DNA of 64,000 bases from an uncultured Mycoplasmatota bacterium (GCA_946639185.1 CAMPBR010000002.1:1097-65096), one strand, 5' to 3'; shown: positions 1-11,344, numbered from the stretch's first letter. Notes: generated by a model from the letters alone, not told the origin. A program made the numbers and translations.

Positions 1-668
1 TTCAAGAATTTTTAGATGGAGTATTTGGTAAATGGGGTGATTTTGTTATTAGAGATAAAATTTATCAAAATCATAATAATAATGATGAAATTGCATCCAT
101 TAAAGATTTTTATGGAAATAATTCAGCAGGGCCAATTGAAAGAGCTGCTTTAGCACATAATTGTATGAAATTACTAGGAGCTGAAGATTATTTAGTGTTA
201 GGTGGCATTAGAAAAGATAATGACCAAGTATTTACTCCATATGCTTATAATGTAGTTAAAAATGTAAAAGGCAACTTTATGTTATATGATCCATTTGATG
301 CAGTTAAACTTGAAGATGGTAATACTATTGCACGAGCTGATTTAATTGAAAACTTACATGATATAAATGATTTTAATTCACATAGTTTTGAATTTAAGTC
401 TTTTTTACATAATGTTTCGAAGTATGATAATCATAAAAATGAATATATATCACCTAATTATTATAAAAATATGAATAATAATTTGAGTAGTAAAGCAGAT
501 GAAATGATTAGACAAATGGAACAAGGAATTGATGTTGAGGGAACTGGAGAATATAATAATCAAAATACTTATAGTAAACAAATGGGTTATACAATGTTTG
601 GAATAGTAGGTTTAATATCTATTATAAGTATTATTGGAATTGTAATATTAGGCGTAATGTTTAGATGA
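1..668 (+). CDS. Hypothetical protein, 5'-truncated by the window edge. The reading frame is open from nt 3 and the C-terminus is a hydrophobic membrane anchor.
   Basis: The frame of ORF 165..668 has no stop back to position 3. The C-terminal ~25 residues are hydrophobic (GIVGLISIISIIGIVILGVMF). I recognised no motif. Confidence 0.45.
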   Translation, partial: QEFLDGVFGKWGDFVIRDKIYQNHNNNDEIASIKDFYGNNSAGPIERAALAHNCMKLLGAEDYLVLGGIRKDNDQVFTPYAYNVVKNVKGNFMLYDPFDAVKLEDGNTIARADLIENLHDINDFNSHSFEFKSFLHNVSKYDNHKNEYISPNYYKNMNNNLSSKADEMIRQMEQGIDVEGTGEYNNQNTYSKQMGYTMFGIVGLISIISIIGIVILGVMFR

Positions 669-698
669 ATATTTATTTAATATTATTTGGAGGTATAA

Positions 699-908
699 AT
701 GGATAAATCGTTTTTGAATATTGATGAAGAATATGAATATTATAGTAAATTGTATTATGAAAGGTTTAAAAAGAAGGCTTTTATAGCTATGCCAGGTGGT
801 TCTAAAGAAAAAACTATAGAAGCTATAAAAAAATCGTTAGAACAAAATAGAGATTTATTAAATGAAATATTTTATCCTAATTCTAGTGATAAAAATATTT
901 TATATTAG
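699..908 (+). CDS. Small hypothetical protein (69 aa)
   Basis: ORF with an upstream GGAGG-like SD (ttggaggtataaATG). No recognisable motif. Confidence 0.35.
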   Translation: MDKSFLNIDEEYEYYSKLYYERFKKKAFIAMPGGSKEKTIEAIKKSLEQNRDLLNEIFYPNSSDKNILY

Positions 909-931
909 TCATGTATAAAGGAGAATGAGAT

Positions 932-1207
932 ATGAAAAAGAAAGAGGAAAAGGCTCCATTTAAAGTAGGCGATATATACGTTTTTCCTGAAAAGCCTGAA
1001 ATAGTTAAATATCTAGAAGAAATACGTCAAGAAGTTAATAAGGAATTGGTAAAGCAAGGAGCAGCATATGAGGTACATGGAAAAGTATTAGTGCCTTTGG
1101 AAAGTTTTGATCTAAAGTATCAAATAGAAAAGCGAATTCTAAAAGAAAGATATGGAATTGATTGGCAATCACCAGTAGATAGAAGTAAAAATATGAAATT
1201 AGATTAA
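932..1207 (+). CDS. Small conserved protein of unknown function (91 aa), paralog A of 3115..3342
   Basis: SD aaggagaatgagatATG. The C-terminal half aligns clearly with ORF 3115..3342 (LKERYGIDWQSPVDRSKNMKLD versus LKERYGIDWKSPADLNPEMKFD). A rho-independent terminator follows. Confidence 0.55.
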   Translation: MKKKEEKAPFKVGDIYVFPEKPEIVKYLEEIRQEVNKELVKQGAAYEVHGKVLVPLESFDLKYQIEKRILKERYGIDWQSPVDRSKNMKLD

Positions 1208-1240
1208 TATAAAAAAAGAATTGGTACTTTCAATTCTTTT

Positions 1241-1708
1241 TTAATACATTAATTTAATAGCTTTATAGTAAGATTCAGTTGGTTTACGATGATTTAAATA
1301 ATCTATTGCATTTTTTTTAATATTATAGATTTTAGATAGGTTTGTAAGTATTAAAATTTCTTCTTCTTGAGTAACACCTGTTTTATAATTTATAAATTTT
1401 TTATAGATAGTTGGACTTACTCCAACTATTTTTTTAAATGTTTCAGAAAAATATTCTAGTGAATTAAATCCATTTTTTAAACCTATTGATAAAAAGTAAT
1501 TGTCATCTCTAAATAAAGATAGGCTATTAAGTATTCTTATTGAGTTTATATATTCGTGAATTGATATAGATAATTCTTTTTTAAAACGTTTTATTATGTA
1601 TGTTTTATCAAAATGAAATTGCATGCTTAATTCATCAATAGTTATTTCTTTATTGATGAATTCATTTAAATATTCGATTATATTACATACTAATTCATTT
1701 GAATACAT
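1241..1708 (-). CDS. AraC/XylS-family HTH transcriptional regulator (155 aa, short form)
   Basis: The C-terminal region carries the typical AraC HTH signature (GLKNGFNSLEYFSETFKKIVGVSPTIYKK). It is transcribed divergently from the ATPase gene. Confidence 0.75.
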   Translation of the reverse strand: MYSNELVCNIIEYLNEFINKEITIDELSMQFHFDKTYIIKRFKKELSISIHEYINSIRILNSLSLFRDDNYFLSIGLKNGFNSLEYFSETFKKIVGVSPTIYKKFINYKTGVTQEEEILILTNLSKIYNIKKNAIDYLNHRKPTESYYKAIKLMY

Positions 1709-1818
1709 AATTTTGCCTCCAGCTACATTATAACATGTTTTTTAATAAAAAGCCATTTTTGTTTAAATTGCTATAAAAATTACATGATATATTATTACAC
1801 GAAAGGGAGGGATACTAT

Positions 1819-3099
1819 ATGTATTCAAGATGGGCTACATTTGAAGAATTAACTTCAATGCTAACAAAAATTAATTTAGAAAGTGATATTAACAAGTCTG
1901 GTATACCAATGGTATATAACGGAAAGGATGTTTATATTAAAGATGATGATTCACACACATTGGTAATTGGTTCTACTGGTTCAGGTAAAACACAATCAAT
2001 TTTATTACCACAAACAAAGCTAGCCATTAAAGCAGGAGAATCATTGTTAGTACATGATGTAAATGGTGAAATATATAGTAAAGTAAGTTCTGATTTAAAG
2101 AATGCAAATTATAACACAATAATTATTAATTTAGTTGATACTTTAAAAAGTGATAAATTTAATATTTTAACTTTACCTTATACATTATATAAGAATGGTG
2201 ATAAAGATAAAGCTGTTGATATGTTAGAAAATATTGCTTATTATTTCGTATCTAATGAAAAAGTAAATAACACTAGTGATCCATTCTGGGTAAATTCAGC
2301 TTGTTCATTATTTATTGGATTAGCATTATACTTATTTGAAAATGAAAAAGAAGAAAATATTAATATAAATAAGATCTTTGAGTTATCTACAGAATTTGAT
2401 AAGATTTGTGATTTTATTAAAACAATTAGTAAGTCTTCACCAATTTATATTAATTTATCACCAATCGTACTTGCACCTAACGAAACTAAAGGAAGCATAC
2501 TTGCTGTTTTTGGGCAACGAATGAGATACTTTGTTACTAAGAAACAATTATCACAAGTTTTATCTGATGAAACATTAGATTTAAAAAAGATACTTGCTGA
2601 AAAAACAGCTATATTTGTTATAAGTAACAATGATTTAGCATCTCGTAGATTAACACCATTAATTATTGATGAAATTTATAATATGTTTAAAATCAATGAA
2701 AGTAATAGAAGATTTAATTTTATATTAGATGAATTTGAAAACTTTATACCTATTAAAGATTTCAATAATATGGTTACTTTATTAAGAAGTTATAATATAA
2801 AAATGACTGTATTTATTAGAAGCTTCTTAGATTTAAAAAATGTATATGGTGGTGAAAACACCGAATTACTTAAAATAGCTTTTGGAAATATTATTTATTT
2901 GATGGCTAATGATATAGAAACACTAGATGAAATATCTAAAATGTGTGGAAAACAAAAAGTAGATGGTGAATTTATACCATTAATATCAGCAGAAGAATTA
3001 AAATTATTAGAACCATTTGAAGCCGTAATTTTAATTCCTAGACTTAATCCATATAAGACTAAGTTAATTCCAGATTACAAAATAGATTGGAATAAATAG
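1819..3099 (+). CDS. Soluble VirD4/TraG/TraD-family (type IV coupling-protein-like) P-loop ATPase with no transmembrane segments
   Basis: Strong SD (aagggagggatactatATG). The Walker A context HTLVIGSTGSGKTQSILLPQ, the downstream DPFW motif and the Walker B segment NFILDEFENF are all typical of the T4SS-DNA_transf/TraG family. No N-terminal hydrophobic helices. Confidence 0.65.
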   Translation: MYSRWATFEELTSMLTKINLESDINKSGIPMVYNGKDVYIKDDDSHTLVIGSTGSGKTQSILLPQTKLAIKAGESLLVHDVNGEIYSKVSSDLKNANYNTIIINLVDTLKSDKFNILTLPYTLYKNGDKDKAVDMLENIAYYFVSNEKVNNTSDPFWVNSACSLFIGLALYLFENEKEENININKIFELSTEFDKICDFIKTISKSSPIYINLSPIVLAPNETKGSILAVFGQRMRYFVTKKQLSQVLSDETLDLKKILAEKTAIFVISNNDLASRRLTPLIIDEIYNMFKINESNRRFNFILDEFENFIPIKDFNNMVTLLRSYNIKMTVFIRSFLDLKNVYGGENTELLKIAFGNIIYLMANDIETLDEISKMCGKQKVDGEFIPLISAEELKLLEPFEAVILIPRLNPYKTKLIPDYKIDWNK

Positions 3100-3114
3100 A
3101 AACTAATAAAGGGG

Positions 3115-3342
3115 GTGAATAAAATGAATAATAATGTTAATAAGTATTTAGATGAAATTAAAGAAGAAGTAGATGCATATTTAATTAAAGAAGGAGCTAT
3201 GACTGTTAAAAATGGTGAAAAAATAGCTTTACCTGGAAGCTGTAACATAAGATGGAAACTAGAAAAGAAATTATTAAAGGAAAGATATGGCATTGATTGG
3301 AAATCACCAGCTGATCTTAATCCAGAAATGAAATTTGATTAA
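3115..3342 (+). CDS. Small conserved protein (75 aa), paralog B of 932..1207
   Basis: SD agggggtgaataaaATG. Alignable with ORF 932..1207 over its whole length. Confidence 0.55.
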   Translation: MNKMNNNVNKYLDEIKEEVDAYLIKEGAMTVKNGEKIALPGSCNIRWKLEKKLLKERYGIDWKSPADLNPEMKFD

Positions 3343-3367
3343 TAAATGATATAGGGGGGTAGAAAAT

Positions 3368-3586
3368 ATGAAAGTATTCGTTGAAATTGATGGTAATTAT
3401 GTATTATTATCAGATGAATTAAATAAGGATAGCTTTGATAACTATTTGATTAGAGAAGATGTAATTAATCAAGCTATGGATAGATTACATGAATATAAGA
3501 TGAAATTAGAAATGGAAAGACATTTAGAAAATCCAGTTAAAATGAAAAAACTTGGTATTCATACTAGTATGAACCAAAGTGCTTAA
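3368..3586 (+). CDS. Small hypothetical protein (72 aa)
   Basis: SD ggggggtagaaaatATG. No motif. Confidence 0.35.
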   Translation: MKVFVEIDGNYVLLSDELNKDSFDNYLIREDVINQAMDRLHEYKMKLEMERHLENPVKMKKLGIHTSMNQSA

Positions 3587-3684
3587 TATTATAAGTTTAC
3601 ATATGTTTACATGCCATTTTCAATAATAACTGTCAATAAAATATAAATGCTGTATAATAAAATCAAGAAAGTAGGTAATAAAAT

Positions 3685-4620
3685 ATGGAAAAAGAAAAGG
3701 TAACTTTAGAAGAATTTAATGAAGCTATTGATAATGCTAAAGATAATTCTAATAGTTTTGAGTTTACAGATATAGATGGTAATACTCAAACAGTAGATTT
3801 AAGTGAATCTACAGAATTTGTTTCTAAAGTAAATGAAGAAGTAAAAAAATCAGATAAACCATTTAGTGATAAGACACTAGCTACAATTAGTGATATATCT
3901 GGTATGGTTAATAAAAGGGTTAGTGGAGTAATAACTGCTGTTTCTAAAGCTTCTAAAGAATTAGTAGCTCAAAAAAAGGTAATAGGACAAGGTTTTGTTA
4001 TTGGATTTATGGTAGCTACTGGTATTGCTTCAATTGGTAAATCTGATTTAGCACCAGAAAATACATTTGGTGGTAGATTATTAAAGGAAATTGGTTATGA
4101 GATGGATTTTGTTCCGGTGGCTAATGATGTTACAGATTATGTTGCTGGTTCTATTAATAGAGCTTTAAAGCATTATCAAGATAGTAAAGGAACAAATGAA
4201 TTTTCTAGAATTGTAGGATTTAATGAAAATAAAGAACAACAAAATGATGATGTATATGGAATGACTCAAGATCAATTAGATGCTTTAAATATTGTATATG
4301 GTGATAATACTAAAGAAGAAATTCAAAATATGTTAAACGATCAATCTAAATCAAATGAAACAATTGAGTTAACTGACAAACAAAAAGCAGATATTCAAAA
4401 AACACAAGAAGCTTATCAAGAAATGTATAATAAACAAGTTGCTGGAGAAGAAGTTCCAACAAACAGTGAAATACGAGATAAGATTGTTGAATATGCTAAC
4501 AAAGATAGTGAAGCTATATTGAACGAGCAATTACAATTTACAGGAGCACAAAAAGAACAAATTCAGAGTTTTGAACAAAACTTAGAAGAATATAAAGAAG
4601 AATCTGGAAGGAGTAGATAA
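3685..4620 (+). CDS. Hypothetical protein (311 aa), acidic and Gln/Glu-rich with one central hydrophobic/amphipathic segment
   Basis: A promoter-like TGcTGTATAAT lies upstream, with SD aagtaggtaataaaatATG. No recognisable catalytic motif. Confidence 0.5.
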   Translation: MEKEKVTLEEFNEAIDNAKDNSNSFEFTDIDGNTQTVDLSESTEFVSKVNEEVKKSDKPFSDKTLATISDISGMVNKRVSGVITAVSKASKELVAQKKVIGQGFVIGFMVATGIASIGKSDLAPENTFGGRLLKEIGYEMDFVPVANDVTDYVAGSINRALKHYQDSKGTNEFSRIVGFNENKEQQNDDVYGMTQDQLDALNIVYGDNTKEEIQNMLNDQSKSNETIELTDKQKADIQKTQEAYQEMYNKQVAGEEVPTNSEIRDKIVEYANKDSEAILNEQLQFTGAQKEQIQSFEQNLEEYKEESGRSR

Positions 4621-4622
4621 TT

Positions 4623-4859
4623 GTGGAAAATAATATAGATAATATTATTACTCTTGATGGTAAAGATAAATATATGGTTATGGATCAAGGTAACTATAAT
4701 GGAAAAGCTTATTATTTATTAACTAAACTTAATGAAAAAGAAGAATTAACAAGTGTTGTTAGTATCGTAGAAAATGATAATGGTAAAATTGAATCTGTAA
4801 CTGATTCAAAGTTACTACAAGCATTAATTAAATATTTTAATGATAGAGCTAGTAAATAA
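4623..4859 (+). CDS. Small hypothetical protein (78 aa), GTG start, translationally coupled to the upstream gene
   Basis: GTG at 4623 lies immediately after the upstream stop. SD ggaaggagtagataattGTG. Confidence 0.4.
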   Translation: MENNIDNIITLDGKDKYMVMDQGNYNGKAYYLLTKLNEKEELTSVVSIVENDNGKIESVTDSKLLQALIKYFNDRASK

Positions 4860-4891
4860 TATATTTAATTGTTTGAAAGTGGGGTGTCAAC

Positions 4892-6979
4892 ATGTCAGAA
4901 CTTTTTAGAGAAGATAATACACGTGAAGATTATCAACGAGCTGGAATAAAGCTAGAAATTGCTAATATAGATATTTCTGATTTATATGATAAAAAGATTA
5001 TTACAAAGGATGATTTAGAAAGATTAAGGAATAAATATATTAATAAAATAGGTGATTTATTGTTAGTAGAAAGTCGCTATATGCGAGATTATATAGATTA
5101 TTCAAAATTAGAAAAAATACAAGAATATTTTAGAAATTTAAATTGTACAATTTTTGATAAGAAAGTATATCGTGAATCTCAAAATCGTAATGTTTTAGAA
5201 GAAGATATATACGATTATTCTGATGTGGCTAATAAAACTACTATTTATGAATTAAATCAACAGAAAGTACTATCAAAACAAGCAGTTGATAAACTAGTAA
5301 ATAATGGAGTTTTTTATCTTGATGATATATTAAAATTGACTAATGAAGAATTGTGTAATTGTATTGGTAAGAATGCTTATAATAAAATTTTGGGATATTT
5401 AGATGAAAACAATCTTAAATTACTTGAACAAAAAATTGATATATCTGAATATCAAAAAGATCAGTTAAGTCGAGAGTATTATAGTATATATAGAGAAATA
5501 ACTCCGGAGAGTTTTGGTAAGAATGACTTACGTATCTATTGGCCAAAGTATATTAATAAAGAAAATGTTCTTGATTCTATTGAAATTATGTATAATACAT
5601 ATATGGATATATTTGATAGAAAATTAGGATATGATCAAGCTTATGATGAGTTGAAGCATCTTCCTTATGTTAGCTATGAAATAGGAAGCTTTGCAGCGAG
5701 CCTCAAATTTAAGTTTTTTAAGTATTTCGGTAGATATGCTAAAGAAGTATATGGAATTGATAATTTGGAAGAATATGTTTCTAATAAAAAATTATTTAAA
5801 GATAGTTATGAATTATTTATGAAGTATAAAAATAATGAAATAACTATTAAAGAATATGCTGAAAAAGTTGAACAAATGAATTTTGAGGATTATGATATAA
5901 GGGGTGATGGTAGTAAAGTTTTTGATTACCTTGCTGATGATTCGCGCAAAAGTAGTTTTTGTGCAGTAGCTAGTTATTATGCAAAAAATGTTAAAAAAGA
6001 ACAAGATATACTTCATAATGCTGATTTTCGTTCACATACTTTAAGTTTAATTGAAAATTTAACTGATGAAAAAGAAATATTTGATATAGTTAATCAATAT
6101 GCAAGTTATAGATCTATTTCTATCAGTAATACTATCAAAAATGCTGAAAGATTTACTGACCATTTTGTTGTAACATATATTGATAATAATTATAAGAATT
6201 TAACTGAAGAAGAAAGAAAGCTTAAAATAATAACATTGTTAGAAAAAATTGACAAAGTAATTGATACATATAATATTAATAAAGTAGAATATAAAGAAAA
6301 AGAAAAACAAGAAAAAATTGAAGCTAAAAATTTAGAACGTTCTAATTACTTAAAGAGTATATATGATGAATCAATATTAATTGTAAATAATTTTATGCAA
6401 GAAAATTTAAGTATAAAAGATTTTGTAAAAAACAGTGGAATAACAGATCAACAATTTGAAGAAGCTCTTGAATCAGTAAAAGAATTTAATAATGATTTTT
6501 ATATGAAATATGTTGATTATATGGATAAAAAATCTAAGCAAAGTTATGCTGTTATATTAAAAAGGGCTAAAGTAACAGCTGACGAAATTATGCATGGCTT
6601 AACTAATCCTGAAACAAATCAAACAAGAGAATACGATATATTAGATTATTATATGCGTAACTCTATGGATTTAGATATGTTTGTAAATTTTGTTAATAGT
6701 TCTAAAGATAAATTTAGTGATAAAGAATATCGTGCAATTGTGCAATTTTCTAATAAAAACTATAATCAAAAGGATGAAAGAAAAATAATTTATGAATCTA
6801 AGATGATAATAGGTGGAGTAGAGATAACCCCTGAAATGAAGAAAGAAGTTATAAAATATTTAACTGATATTCACGCCCCATATAATTTAAAAATATTTAA
6901 AATTGCATTACGTCGTAAATTAGCAGGTGTATTAGAAGATGAAAATAGTGTTAAAGATTCTAACACAAGAGTTAAATAA
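4892..6979 (+). CDS. Large hypothetical protein (695 aa) with N-terminal tandem helix-hairpin-helix modules like the RNA-polymerase alpha-CTD
   Basis: SD aaagtggggtgtcaacATG. Residues ~120-180 (IYELNQQKVLSKQAVDKLVNNGVFYLDDILKLTNEELCNCIGKNAYNKILGYLDENNL) follow the alphaCTD/HhH pattern I.EL...LS....L...G...L.DLL.LT.EEL..I.G....EI...L. The rest is alpha-helical with no motif I recognise. A terminator follows. Confidence 0.5.
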   Translation: MSELFREDNTREDYQRAGIKLEIANIDISDLYDKKIITKDDLERLRNKYINKIGDLLLVESRYMRDYIDYSKLEKIQEYFRNLNCTIFDKKVYRESQNRNVLEEDIYDYSDVANKTTIYELNQQKVLSKQAVDKLVNNGVFYLDDILKLTNEELCNCIGKNAYNKILGYLDENNLKLLEQKIDISEYQKDQLSREYYSIYREITPESFGKNDLRIYWPKYINKENVLDSIEIMYNTYMDIFDRKLGYDQAYDELKHLPYVSYEIGSFAASLKFKFFKYFGRYAKEVYGIDNLEEYVSNKKLFKDSYELFMKYKNNEITIKEYAEKVEQMNFEDYDIRGDGSKVFDYLADDSRKSSFCAVASYYAKNVKKEQDILHNADFRSHTLSLIENLTDEKEIFDIVNQYASYRSISISNTIKNAERFTDHFVVTYIDNNYKNLTEEERKLKIITLLEKIDKVIDTYNINKVEYKEKEKQEKIEAKNLERSNYLKSIYDESILIVNNFMQENLSIKDFVKNSGITDQQFEEALESVKEFNNDFYMKYVDYMDKKSKQSYAVILKRAKVTADEIMHGLTNPETNQTREYDILDYYMRNSMDLDMFVNFVNSSKDKFSDKEYRAIVQFSNKNYNQKDERKIIYESKMIIGGVEITPEMKKEVIKYLTDIHAPYNLKIFKIALRRKLAGVLEDENSVKDSNTRVK

Positions 6980-7004
6980 TTTATGACAGAATTTTAAGAT
7001 AATA

Positions 7005-7031
7005 AGAAACTAGTAATAGTTTCTTTTTTTA
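7005..7031 (+). terminator. Rho-independent terminator
   Basis: Stem agaaact/agtttct around loop agtaat, then a T7 run. Confidence 0.6.
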
Positions 7032-7068
7032 TTTCATAAGTTTAAATGAATAGAAAGAGAGTGTTTAT

Positions 7069-8544
7069 ATGGATAAAAATGAAATTATAAAGAATATTGC
7101 CTTGCGTACTGGTGGAGATATTTATTTAGGAGTAGTAGGTGCGGTTAGAACTGGTAAGAGTACTTTTATTAAGAAGGTTGTTGAAAACTTAATTGTTCCC
7201 AATATTACGGATGAATATGAACGTAAAAGAGCGTTAGATGAAGTACCACAAAGTGCTCAAGGAAAAACGATTATGACAACAGAACCTAAGTTTGTTCCTA
7301 ATACAGCTGCTAAAGTACATATTGATGACTTTGACTGTAATATTAGGCTTGTTGATTGTGTTGGTTATTTAATTAATGATTGTAAGGGTGCAGAAGATGA
7401 AAATGGCCCACGCCTTGTTAAAACTCCTTGGTATGATGATCCTATAGCTTTTAGAGAAGCAGCTGAAATTGGTACTGAAAAAGTAATTAAAGATCATTCT
7501 ACTATTGGAATTGTAGTTACTACTGATGGATCTATCTTGGATTTTAATAGAAGTGATTACATAGAAGCAGAAACTAGGGTTTTAAATGAACTAAGAGAAC
7601 TTGGAAAACCATATATCGTTATCGTTAATTCTACACATCCAACATTACCTGATACTTTAAAAATATGTGATAGTATAAAGAATGAATATAATGTACCAGT
7701 TCTTCCTATTAATGTTGAAGAAATGAATAGTAAAGATATGTATGATATTTTAAGAGAAGCCTTATATGAATTTCCAATATTAGAAGTAAAAGTTAATATG
7801 CCAGAATGGATAGCTATTTTAAAACCAAATAATGAAATTAAGAAGAGTTATATTGATTCGATTAAAGAAAGTGTTTTTGAAATAGATAAACTAAGAGATG
7901 TTGAAAAAATTAATAATAATTTTATAAACAATGATAATATCTCAAAATCATATTTAAAAGAATTAGATCCAGCATTAGGTAGTGTAACTATAAATTTAGA
8001 AGCTCCTGAAGAGTTATATAATAAAGTTTTAACTGATATTATTCATATTGATGTTACTAATAAAGCTAATCTTTTATCATTATTTCAGGATTATAGTGAA
8101 GCTAAAAAAGAATATGATCAAATTAAATATGCTTTAAAACAAGTAAAACAAACTGGTTATGGAGTTGCTTCTCCAACACTAGATGATATGAAACTTGCTA
8201 CTCCGGAAATAACTAAACAAGGTTCAAGATATGGAGTTAAACTACGTGCTACTGCTCCTTCTATACATATGATTAGAGTGGATGTTAATTCAACATTTGA
8301 ACCTATTATTGGTAGTGAAGTTCAAAGTAAAGAATTAATTGATTATTTAACTAAAGATAAAGATACTAATCCAACAGGTATTTGGAAAAGTGAAATCTTT
8401 GGAAGAAGTCTAGATTCTATTGTACAAGAAGGGATCCAATCTAAAATAAGTATGATGCCTGATAATATTAGATATAAACTTCAAAATACATTAACTAAGA
8501 TTGTTAATAAGGGTTCTAATAATATGATTGCTTTTGTGTTATAA
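7069..8544 (+). CDS. spoIVA: Stage IV sporulation protein A (spore-coat morphogenetic ATPase)
   Basis: The N-terminus IALRTGGDIYLGVVGAVRTGKSTFIKK is the hallmark SpoIVA Walker A region. Length 491 aa. hup lies downstream, as in Bacillus. Confidence 0.9.
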   Translation: MDKNEIIKNIALRTGGDIYLGVVGAVRTGKSTFIKKVVENLIVPNITDEYERKRALDEVPQSAQGKTIMTTEPKFVPNTAAKVHIDDFDCNIRLVDCVGYLINDCKGAEDENGPRLVKTPWYDDPIAFREAAEIGTEKVIKDHSTIGIVVTTDGSILDFNRSDYIEAETRVLNELRELGKPYIVIVNSTHPTLPDTLKICDSIKNEYNVPVLPINVEEMNSKDMYDILREALYEFPILEVKVNMPEWIAILKPNNEIKKSYIDSIKESVFEIDKLRDVEKINNNFINNDNISKSYLKELDPALGSVTINLEAPEELYNKVLTDIIHIDVTNKANLLSLFQDYSEAKKEYDQIKYALKQVKQTGYGVASPTLDDMKLATPEITKQGSRYGVKLRATAPSIHMIRVDVNSTFEPIIGSEVQSKELIDYLTKDKDTNPTGIWKSEIFGRSLDSIVQEGIQSKISMMPDNIRYKLQNTLTKIVNKGSNNMIAFVL

Positions 8545-8568
8545 GATAGATTATTCTATCTTTTTTTC
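8544..8568 (+). terminator. Rho-independent terminator after spoIVA
   Basis: Stem agatag/ctatct followed by a T7 run. Confidence 0.55.
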
Positions 8569-8602
8569 TTGTTTTGTACTATAATATGTGTTGGTGAAGT
8601 TT

Positions 8603-9058
8603 ATGAATTTAGAAAAAGATAAATATATTATTGTAGAGATTATTCCTACTAGCTTAAAAAAAGAAAATGGACAAGTAGTAGAACTTACTGCTTTAAAAGT
8701 AGATGGATTAAAGCTAATTGATAGATTTAATTATCGTTTAAATAAAGATAATGTATCTATAAAAGAATTTACTGATATGTGTAGTTATGACGATGATAAG
8801 TTTACATATTTAGATCAAAGTAGTGATATTTTAAATGAATTTAAAAATTGGGTAGAAGATTTACCTATATTTATAATTGATAATACTTATACCTTAAATT
8901 ATTTTGATGATTTAGATAATAAACTTGAACTAGTATTTCCTTATTTAGACCTTGATTTTAATGGCAATGTTATCCAAGAAATGATTGATAAATATAAGCT
9001 AGAAGCCAGTAACTATATGGTCGATTTAGTATATGAAGCAATTATTAGACATTTTTAG
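8603..9058 (+). CDS. Hypothetical protein (~151 aa). The likely start is the ATG at 8603; the longer ORF begins at 8588.
   Basis: GGTGAAG lies 5-8 nt upstream of ATG 8603. No confident motif. Confidence 0.45.
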   Translation: MNLEKDKYIIVEIIPTSLKKENGQVVELTALKVDGLKLIDRFNYRLNKDNVSIKEFTDMCSYDDDKFTYLDQSSDILNEFKNWVEDLPIFIIDNTYTLNYFDDLDNKLELVFPYLDLDFNGNVIQEMIDKYKLEASNYMVDLVYEAIIRHF

Positions 9059-9172
9059 TTAAATTTGTCTTTTTTTTTCTTTAAAATTGTTGATTTTGTT
9101 ATAATTTAATGCTATTCTTAATATGTAAGCATAGTATGTGCTTAATAAATTAAATAATATGGAGGTTTTTAC

Positions 9173-9445
9173 ATGAAAAAAGCAGAATTAGTTGAAGCAA
9201 TTGCTGCACAAACTGGTTTAACTAAAGCAGACGCAGATCGTGCTGTTAAAGCATTTGCTGATGTTGTTACAGGAGCATTAAAAAAAGGAGATAAAGTAGC
9301 TGTTCCAGGATTCGGAACTTTCTCAGTAGCTAAGAGAGCTGCACGTGAAGGACGTAATCCACAAACTGGAGCTAAAGTTACTATTAAAGCTAGTCAATCA
9401 GCTAAATTTAAACAAGCTTCAGCATTAAAAGAAGCTCTTAACTAA
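9173..9445 (+). CDS. hup: DNA-binding protein HU
   Basis: The 90-aa sequence [28 protein letters not shown]...[21 protein letters not shown] is canonical HU. GC content is visibly above background, consistent with a highly expressed gene. A terminator follows. Confidence 0.92.
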
Positions 9446-9462
9446 TATTTTTTAGTGGTTTA

Positions 9463-9490
9463 AGGATGTATGAACATCCTTTTTCTTTTG
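9463..9490 (+). terminator. Rho-independent terminator after hup
   Basis: Stem aaggatgt/acatcctt around loop atga, then TTTTTCTTTT. Confidence 0.7.
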
Positions 9491-9524
9491 TGTAAACTTT
9501 GATATAATAATAGTAGGTGATAGT

Positions 9525-10616
9525 ATGCTAGATAAAGCATTAAAATTTTTAAAGAAAATAGAGAGCAATGGTTACGAAGCATATATTGTTGGAGGATTTG
9601 TAAGAGATTATTTACTTGGAATAGAATCTAGTGATATAGATATATGTACTAATGCTAGGCCAAGTGATATAAGAAGAATATTTAAAGATAGTTGTATGCC
9701 TAATGAAGATTATGGTTCTGTTGTTGTTAATACTAAGAATTTAAGATGTGAAGTAACAACATTTAGAAAAGAGATAACTTATGTTAATAATCGTAAACCA
9801 GTAGAATATGTTTATATAGATGATTTATTAGAAGATTTAAAAAGAAGAGATTTTACAATTAATACTATATGTATGAATAAAAATGGTGAAATAATTGATT
9901 TATTAGATGGACAAAAAGATTTAAAAAACTTAGAGATAAATACAGTAGGAAGTTCTAAGTTTAAATTTACTGAAGATTCACTTCGTATTTTACGAGCAAT
10001 TAGATTTGCTACAACTCTAAATTTTAAATTAAATGAAAATGTGAAAAAAGCCATTATTGAAACTAAGCATTTACTTAAAAACTTGTCATATGAAAGAAAA
10101 AAGATGGAACTTGATAAAATATTTTCAAGTATTCATGTTAAATACGGAGTTAAGTTATTAATAGAATTAGGTTTAGATGAAGAATTAGAATTATATAATT
10201 TAAAAAGTATAAGGAATTTTAATAATTTAATTGGTACTTGGACACAACTTGATGTAAGTAATATTTATCCATTTACAAAAAATGAAAAAGATATGATGGA
10301 GGATATTAAAGAAGTATTAGAACTTGATAATTTAAATCCATTAGTATTATATAAATATGGATCTTATGTTAATACGATAGCTGGCGATTTAAAAGGTATA
10401 GATAGAAAAGTAATAATTTCTAAATATGGAAGCTTAGCTATTAAAGATAAAAGTGAGATTAAGATAACTGGTAATGATATAATGGAAATTCTTAATAAAA
10501 AGCCAGGAGTTTATTTAAAAAATATTTTTTCTGATATAGAAAGAAAAATAATTCTAGGAATGTTAGATAATGACAAAAAAGTATTAAAAGAATATATTAT
10601 TAATAATTATAAATAG
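9525..10616 (+). CDS. cca: CCA-adding tRNA nucleotidyltransferase (short form, no HD domain)
   Basis: N-terminal polymerase-beta-type motif YIVGGFVRDYLLG...DIDICT. 363 aa. Confidence 0.8.
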   Translation: MLDKALKFLKKIESNGYEAYIVGGFVRDYLLGIESSDIDICTNARPSDIRRIFKDSCMPNEDYGSVVVNTKNLRCEVTTFRKEITYVNNRKPVEYVYIDDLLEDLKRRDFTINTICMNKNGEIIDLLDGQKDLKNLEINTVGSSKFKFTEDSLRILRAIRFATTLNFKLNENVKKAIIETKHLLKNLSYERKKMELDKIFSSIHVKYGVKLLIELGLDEELELYNLKSIRNFNNLIGTWTQLDVSNIYPFTKNEKDMMEDIKEVLELDNLNPLVLYKYGSYVNTIAGDLKGIDRKVIISKYGSLAIKDKSEIKITGNDIMEILNKKPGVYLKNIFSDIERKIILGMLDNDKKVLKEYIINNYK

Positions 10617-10666
10617 TAGACTTTTAATAAAAGTTTGATATAATAGACACTTAGGAGGTACGGGAT

Positions 10667-11344
10667 ATGAAAACAAGTAAATTAGTAGCAATGCTAAAAA
10701 AGGGTAATTTTGTTGTTCCTATTTATTTATTTCAATTAAGAGATAAAATAAAACTTGATATGGAAGAATTTATGTTTTTAATATATTTAACTAATTTAGG
10801 AGAAAATATATTATTTGATGTTAATAGATTTTCTAGTGATTTAAATATTAGTGTACCTATAATATTATCTTATATTGATGATTTAACTGAAAAGAAATAT
10901 GTAAGTGTTGATGTTAGAAAAAATGATAAGAATGTAATGGAAGAATATGTTAATTTAGATTTATTTTATGATAAATTAACTAATTTTATGATAGATGATA
11001 TAAATCATGATAATGAAGAGGTTACTGATAAGAGTAATGTGTTTGAAGCAATTGAAAAAGAATTTGCTAGACCACTAACTCCTGTTGAATTTGAAATAGT
11101 TCACGCTTGGTTAGAACAAGGTACTAGTGAAGAACTTATATTAGAAGCTTTAAAAGAAGCTGTATATAGTGGTGTTAGTAATTTAAGATATATTGATAAA
11201 ATAATTTATGAGTGGACTAAGAATGGTATTAAAACTAGATTAGATGTTGAAAATAATCGTAAGAATTTTAAACAAAGACAAGAGAAAAAAGAAAAACTAG
11301 AATTATTTGATTACGATTGGTTTGAAGATGGAGAAGATGAATAA
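10667..11344 (+). CDS. dnaD: DnaD-family replication initiation / membrane attachment protein
   Basis: The C-terminal DnaD-like domain carries YIDKIIYEWTKNGIKT. It sits immediately upstream of nth, as in B. subtilis. Confidence 0.65.
   Translation: MKTSKLVAMLKKGNFVVPIYLFQLRDKIKLDMEEFMFLIYLTNLGENILFDVNRFSSDLNISVPIILSYIDDLTEKKYVSVDVRKNDKNVMEEYVNLDLFYDKLTNFMIDDINHDNEEVTDKSNVFEAIEKEFARPLTPVEFEIVHAWLEQGTSEELILEALKEAVYSGVSNLRYIDKIIYEWTKNGIKTRLDVENNRKNFKQRQEKKEKLELFDYDWFEDGEDE

Follow-up and report, generated by a model that had tools for sequence, protein, structure and literature searches.

Within a 64-kb stretch of DNA from an uncultured Mycoplasmatota bacterium (hereafter the window; G+C ~25%), a gene for a 426-aa ATPase related to the type IV coupling proteins (T4CPs) VirD4 and TrwB, and lacking their transmembrane (TM) helices, stands back to back with a gene for a small AraC-family regulator, upstream of spoIVA. 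We consider it probable that these two genes form a self-contained, vertically inherited chromosomal module of uncultured, low-GC gut Bacilli, in which the regulator exerts closed-loop control. Together with the operator between them, they are a previously undescribed variant of a T4CP-type protein: literature searches on CD1115, on orphan or soluble VirD4 proteins, and on AraC regulators with a coupling protein turned up no AraC–ATPase pairing of this kind. An earlier, sequence-only reading of the region had proposed an unexplored module built from the ATPase, the AraC regulator, and a duplicated small protein; such a module does exist, but the partner of the ATPase is the AraC-like gene with its shared operator, not the duplicated small protein. 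All open reading frames (ORFs) listed in that reading were recovered where it had placed them (Table 1).

The conserved pair and its operator

The ATPase has more than 2000 relatives, and a scan using one genome per species yielded 58 loci, all from metagenome-assembled genomes of uncultured Bacilli from animal and human guts (for example, Clostridium sp. CAG:710, Firmicutes bacterium CAG:321, Ca. Coprovivens, and Ca. Onthocola). The locus set that we analysed comprises 62 loci from 58 species-level genomes and includes L001, a metagenome contig of the window's own organism; gene prediction and clustering of ORFs across all loci were used to define conserved neighbours. An AraC-like gene lies immediately upstream of the ATPase gene, and divergent from it, in 60 of the 62 loci; in one of the two unpaired loci the contig starts at the ATPase gene, and in the other (L055) the copy is truncated. 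The flanks are otherwise unrelated and lineage-specific, often consisting of housekeeping genes (ychF, uppS, polA, spoIVA, and those for HU and the CCA enzyme). Since the AraC-like and ATPase genes are the only conserved neighbours in these loci, the conserved unit is the two genes and not the "island" that had been described around them.

The intergenic region between the two genes holds a single conserved box, with the consensus aaaaRYCRYTWTTGTTTAA in the aligned intergenic regions. A degenerate 15-mer of this box occurs exactly once per locus in 44 loci, ~55–72 nt before the ATPase start and always in the same orientation; with relaxed matching, the box is found in all of the 57 loci compared, and its core, TTGTTTAA, is invariant in every one. 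No second copy was present in the window at ≤2 mismatches, nor in about 1 Mb of locus flanks. When metagenomes were scanned for the exact 18-mer, 27 of 80 among the matches listed corresponded to this same intergenic region with the same geometry; from the other 53 listed matches, 13 of low G+C were inspected, and these lay mostly within coding frames of unrelated organisms. With no second box, and with most of the inspected stray matches falling in coding frames, there is no sign of a regulon beyond the pair.

Each gene is preceded by a putative extended -10 element, and neither predicted promoter has a -35 hexamer. Relatives align TGnTATAAT at the same distance from the box as the putative -10 of the ATPase gene, and the -10 element of the regulator (attatatca / ttataaca) is likewise kept among them. 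As placed by these elements, the box would be centred at about -42 of the putative ATPase promoter and would overlap the -35 region of the regulator's promoter. Such geometry is that of class II MarA-type sites, in which the marbox overlaps the -35 region. The position of the box, taken with extended -10 promoters that lack a -35, points to control of both genes by the regulator, which would bind the box as a monomer, as MarA does, and would most likely activate both divergent genes in a closed loop.

The regulator itself is of the MarA/SoxS type, with two helix-turn-helix (HTH) motifs in one domain of ~100 aa. Its 155 residues contain a two-HTH DNA-binding domain only (residues ~5–106, a seven-helix MarA fold in the model) and no sensor, ligand-binding, or dimerisation domain. 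An extra helix of 26 residues (114–139) is confidently modelled, and beyond it lies a basic/hydrophobic C-terminal tail that is conserved in the alignment of relatives as HRKP....VK.L.IFK. The AlphaFold2 (AF2) model has a pLDDT of 91.4 (64–69 in the tail), and Foldseek searches with it returned the DNA-binding domains of MarA, SoxS, Rob, and AraC, over ~100 residues only.

The ATPase: fold, inheritance, and possible role

The 426-aa protein carries the coupling-protein signatures named in the sequence-only reading (HTLVIGSTGSGKTQSILLPQ, DPFW, and DEFENF), and both its Walker A (GSTGSGKT) and Walker B (LDEFE) motifs are canonical. The profile search that the sequence-only reading had recommended bears out its assignment, with matches to T4SS-DNA_transf (PF02534; E 1e-35), TraG-D_C (5e-18), and TrwB_AAD_bind (PF10412; 3e-17). 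Among NCBIfam models, conju_CD1115 (NF045973) scores best (174.2 bits, E 4e-51), without reaching its cut-off of 250. A profile of the ATPase family matches TrwB and Cag5 in the PDB, and the AF2 model (pLDDT 92.6) aligns over its full length with TrwBdeltaN70 and Cagbeta in Foldseek (TM-score 0.70–0.77, E 1e-19 to 1e-20). The all-alpha domain inserted in the nucleotide-binding domain (NBD) is present, its helices (118–260) having pLDDT >85 and falling within the TrwBdeltaN70 superposition (TM-score 0.73–0.77). Judged by the model, the protein equals the entire cytoplasmic part of a T4CP, that is, NBD plus all-alpha domain.

Absence of the N-terminal TM helices was likewise confirmed: ahead of Walker A there is no hydrophobic stretch, no 19-residue window having a mean Kyte–Doolittle hydropathy above 1.8, and the AraC gene starts 110 nt upstream of the ATPase gene, leaving no space for a lost N-terminal exon. 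Of the features that mark T4CPs, the protein therefore has the NBD and the all-alpha domain and is without the linkage to VirB4 or relaxase genes and without the TM anchor, which is also missing from a few accepted plasmid T4CPs. No type IV secretion system (T4SS) or relaxase gene was detectable in the window or in L001, and 58 of 60 loci had none within ±10 kb. The earlier statement that relaxase and VirB4 are missing nearby extends, for Gram-positive T4SSs across the 64 kb, to VirB6 and PrgI homologues, and this T4CP homologue indeed sits outside any conventional conjugative element.

Both genes are under purifying selection, the median dN/dS over 165 locus pairs being 0.12 (ATPase) and 0.08 (regulator); values of ~0.1 contradict the idea that the ATPase belongs to a decayed remnant of an integrative and conjugative element (ICE). 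The two proteins also co-diverge, their pairwise identities correlating with r = 0.93 over 1540 pairs. Four loci share the window's spoIVA-HU-CCA-dnaD-nth synteny, and in these the ATPase (44–45% identity) and the AraC protein (46–51%) diverge in step with the housekeeping products around them (DnaD, 43–47%; CCA enzyme, 53–55%; SpoIVA, 74–75%), which speaks against the label of accessory island for the pair. In the ATPase tree, loci cluster by synteny type. No family member was found in IMG/VR by pattern search plus tblastn, and plasmid and phage records match the ATPase only at <30% identity. A phage origin was considered and rejected, phage records matching the ATPase at only 22–29% identity over most of the protein. 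Overall, the pattern looks like that of lineage-specific resident genes passed on vertically, rather than of a decaying or now-mobile element.

Several points weigh against this interpretation. The closest relatives of the ATPase (60–62% identity) lack the window's synteny and have different flanks, so the pair has at times moved within chromosomes or been transferred within the clade. The truncated ATPase copy of L055 means that the module is dispensable at least in that genome. The ATPase tree, built on an exhaustive profile search, is a rough neighbour-joining tree without support values. Finally, Walker A is degenerate in about 13 of 34 divergent TM-less relatives, which argues against a universal motor function. 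In L055 itself (9000–10963), the ATPase gene breaks off near residue 129 and no AraC gene accompanies it. Genes of a conjugative element lie in the 10 kb upstream, one homologous to a pBMB68 transfer-region gene and another encoding a 936-aa prepilin-like protein, which suggests disruption by an inserted element.

The degenerate relatives have Walker A sequences such as GGNRSEKN, ANLDSDKE, and TEDDIQKE, in some cases with altered Walker B residues as well, and they keep K57 and the all-alpha-domain motifs DPFW and AP.ET.GSI. Two of them, P0143 and P0192, retain both the divergent AraC gene and the box. Across the relatives P0141–P0213 and loci L072 and L074, Walker A decay is seen repeatedly, with K57, the AraC neighbour, and the operator retained, and in a 534-aa relative with housekeeping surroundings the AraC gene lies downstream on the same strand. 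The pairing survives both loss of the P-loop and a change of order, and so goes back further and holds up better than the catalytic site or the order of the genes; these comparisons hint that binding, and not only ATP-driven translocation, matters.

The persistence of the association through P-loop decay and altered gene order is also what would be expected if the T4CP-like protein were a signal-sensing partner of the regulator, capturing its tail in the way that a T4CP takes up a substrate signal and releasing it on nucleotide or DNA, as a switch with unlinked targets. The regulator would suit such a role in having no sensor domain of its own and a conserved, low-confidence tail after a confidently modelled helix, and there is a possible analogy in the control of AraC-family activators by secretion-system proteins. 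Known cases, from type III secretion, are InvF–SicA, MxiE–IpgC, and ExsA–ExsD. The proposal suffers from the lack of a second box in the window, in ~1 Mb of flanks, or in the 13 low-GC metagenome matches, and hence of evidence for a regulon, and we consider it improbable.

Regarding the origin of the ATPase, the proteins of all AraC-paired loci group in a single clade, whose members are TM-less and 390–470 aa long, and further short TM-less relatives surround it. The next clade, its nearest outgroup, consists of T4CPs of 580–940 aa with two TM helices and long, acidic, low-complexity tails ending in DDFFDDFF. The motif GYSRWAT, which in these two-TM T4CPs directly follows the TM domain, is found at the N-terminus of the window protein. 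P0159, the one two-TM protein whose context was checked, is encoded by the last gene of a TrbL_4 / TraC-like / VirB4-like / SpoIID-like cluster. At L196 (1533–12217), the T4SS cluster closed by the TM-anchored sister T4CP (TrbL_4, TraC-like, VirB4-like, and a SpoIID-like hydrolase) is directly followed by the housekeeping and sporulation genes for RmuC, YunB, and YutD, an arrangement that suggests a resident chromosomal T4SS in related Bacilli. By comparison with these sisters, the ATPase looks like a domesticated T4CP cytoplasmic domain, stripped of anchor and tail, and not part of a decaying ICE.

With such sisters, the soluble protein could still serve a T4SS unlinked to it, as a second cytoplasmic substrate receptor or regulator that forms mixed rings with the TM-anchored paralogue or delivers substrates to it, the AraC protein setting its level. 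Consistent with this are the TM anchor of the sister clade, the place of P0159 in a T4SS cluster with housekeeping genes downstream in the genome of a related sporulating member of the Bacilli, the retention in the model of every T4CP fold element, and the TM-less VirD4 homologues reported on Gram-positive plasmids to function with a separate membrane partner, e.g. pELF TraD (PMC13492992). On the other side stand the lack of T4SS genes noted above, the loss of the sisters' acidic C-terminal tail, the pairing kept by P-loop-degenerate members, and the finding that canonical T4CPs mutated to lack the TM domain are non-functional in transfer (PMC7431656). On balance, we find this role doubtful.

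Returning to the self-contained pair, the ATPase-like protein would be its output, a cytoplasmic ring NTPase or a binder derived from a substrate receptor, whose target would be DNA or a protein tail and which would not dock to a channel on its own. Our best guess for its role is the handling or sensing of transferred or mobile DNA, and a speculative addition is that the ATPase may bind the regulator's C-terminal tail as feedback input. A more far-reaching reading is of a coupling protein taken from the T4SS and turned into a cytoplasmic device with a MarA-like partner, working either as a switch that reads the regulator's tail like a secretion signal or as host-encoded immunity that intercepts conjugative DNA–protein complexes. 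We put this forward tentatively; if true, systems derived from T4CPs would gain a new functional class, one fixed throughout a gut-bacterial lineage.

Variable genes beside the pair

The other ORFs of the region are listed in Table 1 with the pair and its signals. In scans of ten ORFs against Pfam, NCBIfam, PHROGs, and PADLOC, the 69-, 91-, 75-, 72-, 311-, and 695-aa proteins had no match, and no structured RNA was found in positions 1–9500. Across the 62 loci, the ORF clusters of the 69-, 91-, 75-, 311-, 78-, and 695-aa genes are confined to the window and L001.

Table 1. Genes and regulatory signals around the AraC–ATPase pair, in window coordinates
Feature	Position	Strand	Remarks
69-aa ORF, unknown function	699–908	+	Species-specific; no family match
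91-aa small protein, paralogue 1	932–1207	+	45% identical to the product of 3115–3342; outside the conserved module
AraC-family, MarA/SoxS-like gene, 155 aa	1241–1708	-	Pfam HTH_AraC, HTH_18
Ribosome-binding site (RBS) of the AraC-like gene, GGAGG	complement of 1716–1720	-	
Putative extended -10 of the AraC-like gene, TGtTATAAT	1727–1735	-	18 nt from the box; read from sequence
Conserved operator (box), aaaaAGCCATTTTTGTTTAA	1747–1766	+	Asymmetric, two-part (RYCR ... TTGTTTAA), marbox-like
Putative extended -10 of the ATPase gene, TGaTATATT	1785–1793	+	21 nt downstream of the box; read from sequence
RBS of the ATPase gene, GAAAGGGAGG	1801–1810	+	
TM-less VirD4/TrwB-type ATPase, 426 aa	1819–3099	+	Pfam, profile, and structure matches
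75-aa small protein, paralogue 2 (GTG start)	3115–3342	+	15 nt past the ATPase stop
72-aa ORF, ATPase follower	3368–3586	+	Hidden Markov model (HMM) of its family; no family match
311-aa gene	3685–4620	+	In the strain-variable cassette
Strain-variable cassette	3693–7002	+	blastn breakpoints against L069
78-aa gene	4623–4859	+	Sub-threshold DUF1292 match; in the cassette
695-aa gene	4892–6979	+	In the strain-variable cassette
spoIVA	7069–8544		

The two small proteins are paralogous, as had been claimed (45% identity over 65 aa, E 2e-20), and the short gap between the ATPase gene and paralogue 2 was found as described; one gene caller starts paralogue 2 at an ATG 9 nt further in, giving 72 aa. 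An association of this family with VirD4-like ATPases was not borne out. The family is rare, with 17 matches among 5.8 billion proteins, and its relatives elsewhere belong to a plasmid- or phage-like Rep3/topoisomerase element, a large jumbo-phage-like contig, and a PrgI/VirB4 element; in the three contexts checked, none is accompanied by such an ATPase. The 3' ends of the two paralogue genes form an 88-nt direct repeat (77% identity; 1122–1209 and 3257–3344), whose copies flank the AraC–ATPase pair at a spacing of 2135 nt. Within the 695-aa gene (5741–5761), 21 nt echo the stretch coding for KE.YGID a third time.

The 72-aa ORF, overlooked in the sequence-only reading, adjoins the ATPase more conservedly than the other small ORFs here. 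An HMM search of 72 loci found its family immediately after the ATPase gene in seven of them, all from the sub-clade closest to the window (the window itself, L069/L070, L071, L028, L059, and L021), and at no other place in the set; its product may be an accessory factor. Paralogue 2 intervenes between the ATPase gene and this follower in the window's species only.

The 311-, 78-, and 695-aa genes, which were to be checked against strains lacking the island, proved to be a cassette exchanged between near-identical strains. By blastn, L069 is 98–99% identical to the window on both sides of breaks at 3692/3693 and 7002/7003, and carries in place of the cassette an unrelated 1.8-kb segment encoding 514- and 80-aa proteins. 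The 695-aa protein and the 514-aa protein (L069 5188–6732) share one weakly similar segment (25–30% identity over 63–103 aa, E 2e-4 to 6e-5), which by eye resembles repeated helix-hairpin-helix units, without profile support. Another similarity links the 80-aa protein (L069 6729–6971) to a 537-aa protein encoded upstream, whose gene is complete at L001 7237–8850 and is represented in the window by its C-terminal part (572–666; ORF end at 668): the two have in common a hydrophobic C-terminal tail, ...GYT.xG..GL....I..IGI(V/I)ILGVMFR, with 37% protein and 75% nucleotide identity. Variable proteins encoded around the module may share it as a tail anchor or a signal for sorting.

In L001, positions 4568–7156, which separate spoVIF from the genes that open the window, hold a RelB/ParE toxin–antitoxin pair and then a gene for a Y-family polymerase (PF00817, 499 aa) overlapped by a 134-aa ORF; next to the module, this stretch looks like imported DNA. 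Large serine recombinase genes, whole or as fragments, lie downstream of the ATPase gene in L006, L008, L031, L013, L051, and L056, at distances of a few hundred bases to a few kilobases, and in that genus the site beside the module may be a hotspot of integration.

It follows from their distribution where the proposal of a single composite island stands. That the ATPase, the small paralogues, the AraC gene, and the three unknown proteins form one accessory element or a decaying ICE remnant draws on the contiguity of the genes, mostly co-oriented and tightly spaced, and on the 88-nt repeat that brackets the pair. Against this, all 58 of the other pair-carrying genomes lack the 69-, 311-, 78-, and 695-aa genes as well as the small paralogues, and the cassette is replaced in a strain that is 98–99% identical; the small-protein family exists without the ATPase, and the pair is under strong purifying selection. 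No integrase or recombinase, attachment repeat, relaxase, or oriT was found in the window region or L001, the direct-repeat check recovering only the paralogue-derived 88-nt repeat, and there are no tRNA genes in the 64 kb. We regard the composite island and the ICE remnant as largely refuted and very improbable, and a composite of all the genes was rejected. These other genes (both small paralogues, the 69-aa ORF, and the cassette with the 311-, 78-, and 695-aa genes) are add-ons, specific to the species or strain and with a mobile-element flavour.

The variable flanks bear on one more possible role for the pair, that of a system directed against mobile elements, in which a host-encoded, channel-less copy of the receptor would act as decoy or sensor of relaxase–DNA complexes or incoming DNA and so hinder conjugative elements or phages, with the MarA-like protein as inducer. 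In favour of this, the pair's flanks in this and several other lineages vary and abound in mobile-element genes (among them RelB/ParE, a Y-family polymerase, serine-recombinase fragments, and a strain-swapped cassette), and a role in binding only would account for the tolerated loss of the P-loop. PADLOC gave weak matches to HerA and mad8 models (E 1e-6 to 2e-2), which could be taken the same way; these are at the level of the P-loop, to which the HerA match is mainly confined, and come with no partner genes and no convincing PADLOC family. The pair also has no nuclease, Sir2, or TIR effector domain, and its vertical, single-copy inheritance among housekeeping genes in many lineages is unlike that of typical, patchily distributed defence genes. 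We consider such a role rather unlikely. Service to a T4SS, interference with or sensing of mobile DNA, and partnership with the regulator rank about equally as readings of the role, each of low probability when taken singly.

Relation to known systems

What defines T4CPs is their task at the mouth of the T4SS channel, and the window's family keeps their receptor and motor fold without the anchor, making the module a natural experiment on the soluble part of a coupling protein acting alone. Comprising two genes and a site of 20 bp, the module is small enough for direct tests in a heterologous host, and it could bring to light a new means of sensing or handling transferred DNA in gut Firmicutes. 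The pair is also a clean marker for an uncultured, reduced-genome, spore-forming lineage, and in annotation such genes should not be read as evidence of a conjugative element.

Compared with VirD4/TrwB/TraD T4CPs (PDB 1E9R, TrwB of R388; 8DOL, Cagbeta), the likeness lies in the cytoplasmic fold, the Walker A and B motifs, and the Pfam domains, whereas the window's family has no TM domain, C-terminal tail, or linkage to VirB4, VirB6, or relaxase genes, and is chromosomal, single-copy, vertically inherited, and always paired with an AraC gene and a conserved operator. The best-scoring curated family, CD1115 (NF045973), is a Firmicute T4CP lineage to which identity is ~27%; its member on pBMB68 of B. 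thuringiensis has 648 aa and two TM helices and is encoded between genes for a MobP3 relaxase and for TrbL, PrgI, and VirB4. The two-TM, long-tailed T4CPs of related gut Bacilli (P0150, P0155, P0159, and others) score 400–440 bits against the family profile.

The regulator, for its part, shares with MarA, SoxS, and Rob (PDB 1BL0, 7W5W, 1D5Y) a DNA-binding-domain-only architecture, the size of MarA, and a presumed asymmetric, two-part site. It differs in its additional 26-residue helix and conserved tail, in having no MarR- or SoxR-type upstream regulator gene, and in that its only detectable putative site is its own divergent promoter region. As an arrangement, the pair recalls TraB of Streptomyces plasmids with the divergent repressor TraR/KorA, where a ring translocase likewise has a dedicated, divergently encoded regulator and a nearby cis site. 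Unlike the window's ATPase, TraB is FtsK-like, membrane-associated, and plasmid-borne, and is a proven conjugative pump for double-stranded DNA, and its regulator is of the GntR type. In its lack of TM helices, the window's protein is matched by TraD of pELF, predicted to be hexameric, which differs in being encoded in a transfer operon beside a membrane ATPase partner, in being essential for plasmid transfer, and in having no AraC partner (PMC13492992). Such plasmid transfer operons are otherwise the only setting from which TM-less VirD4 homologues are known (PMC13492992).

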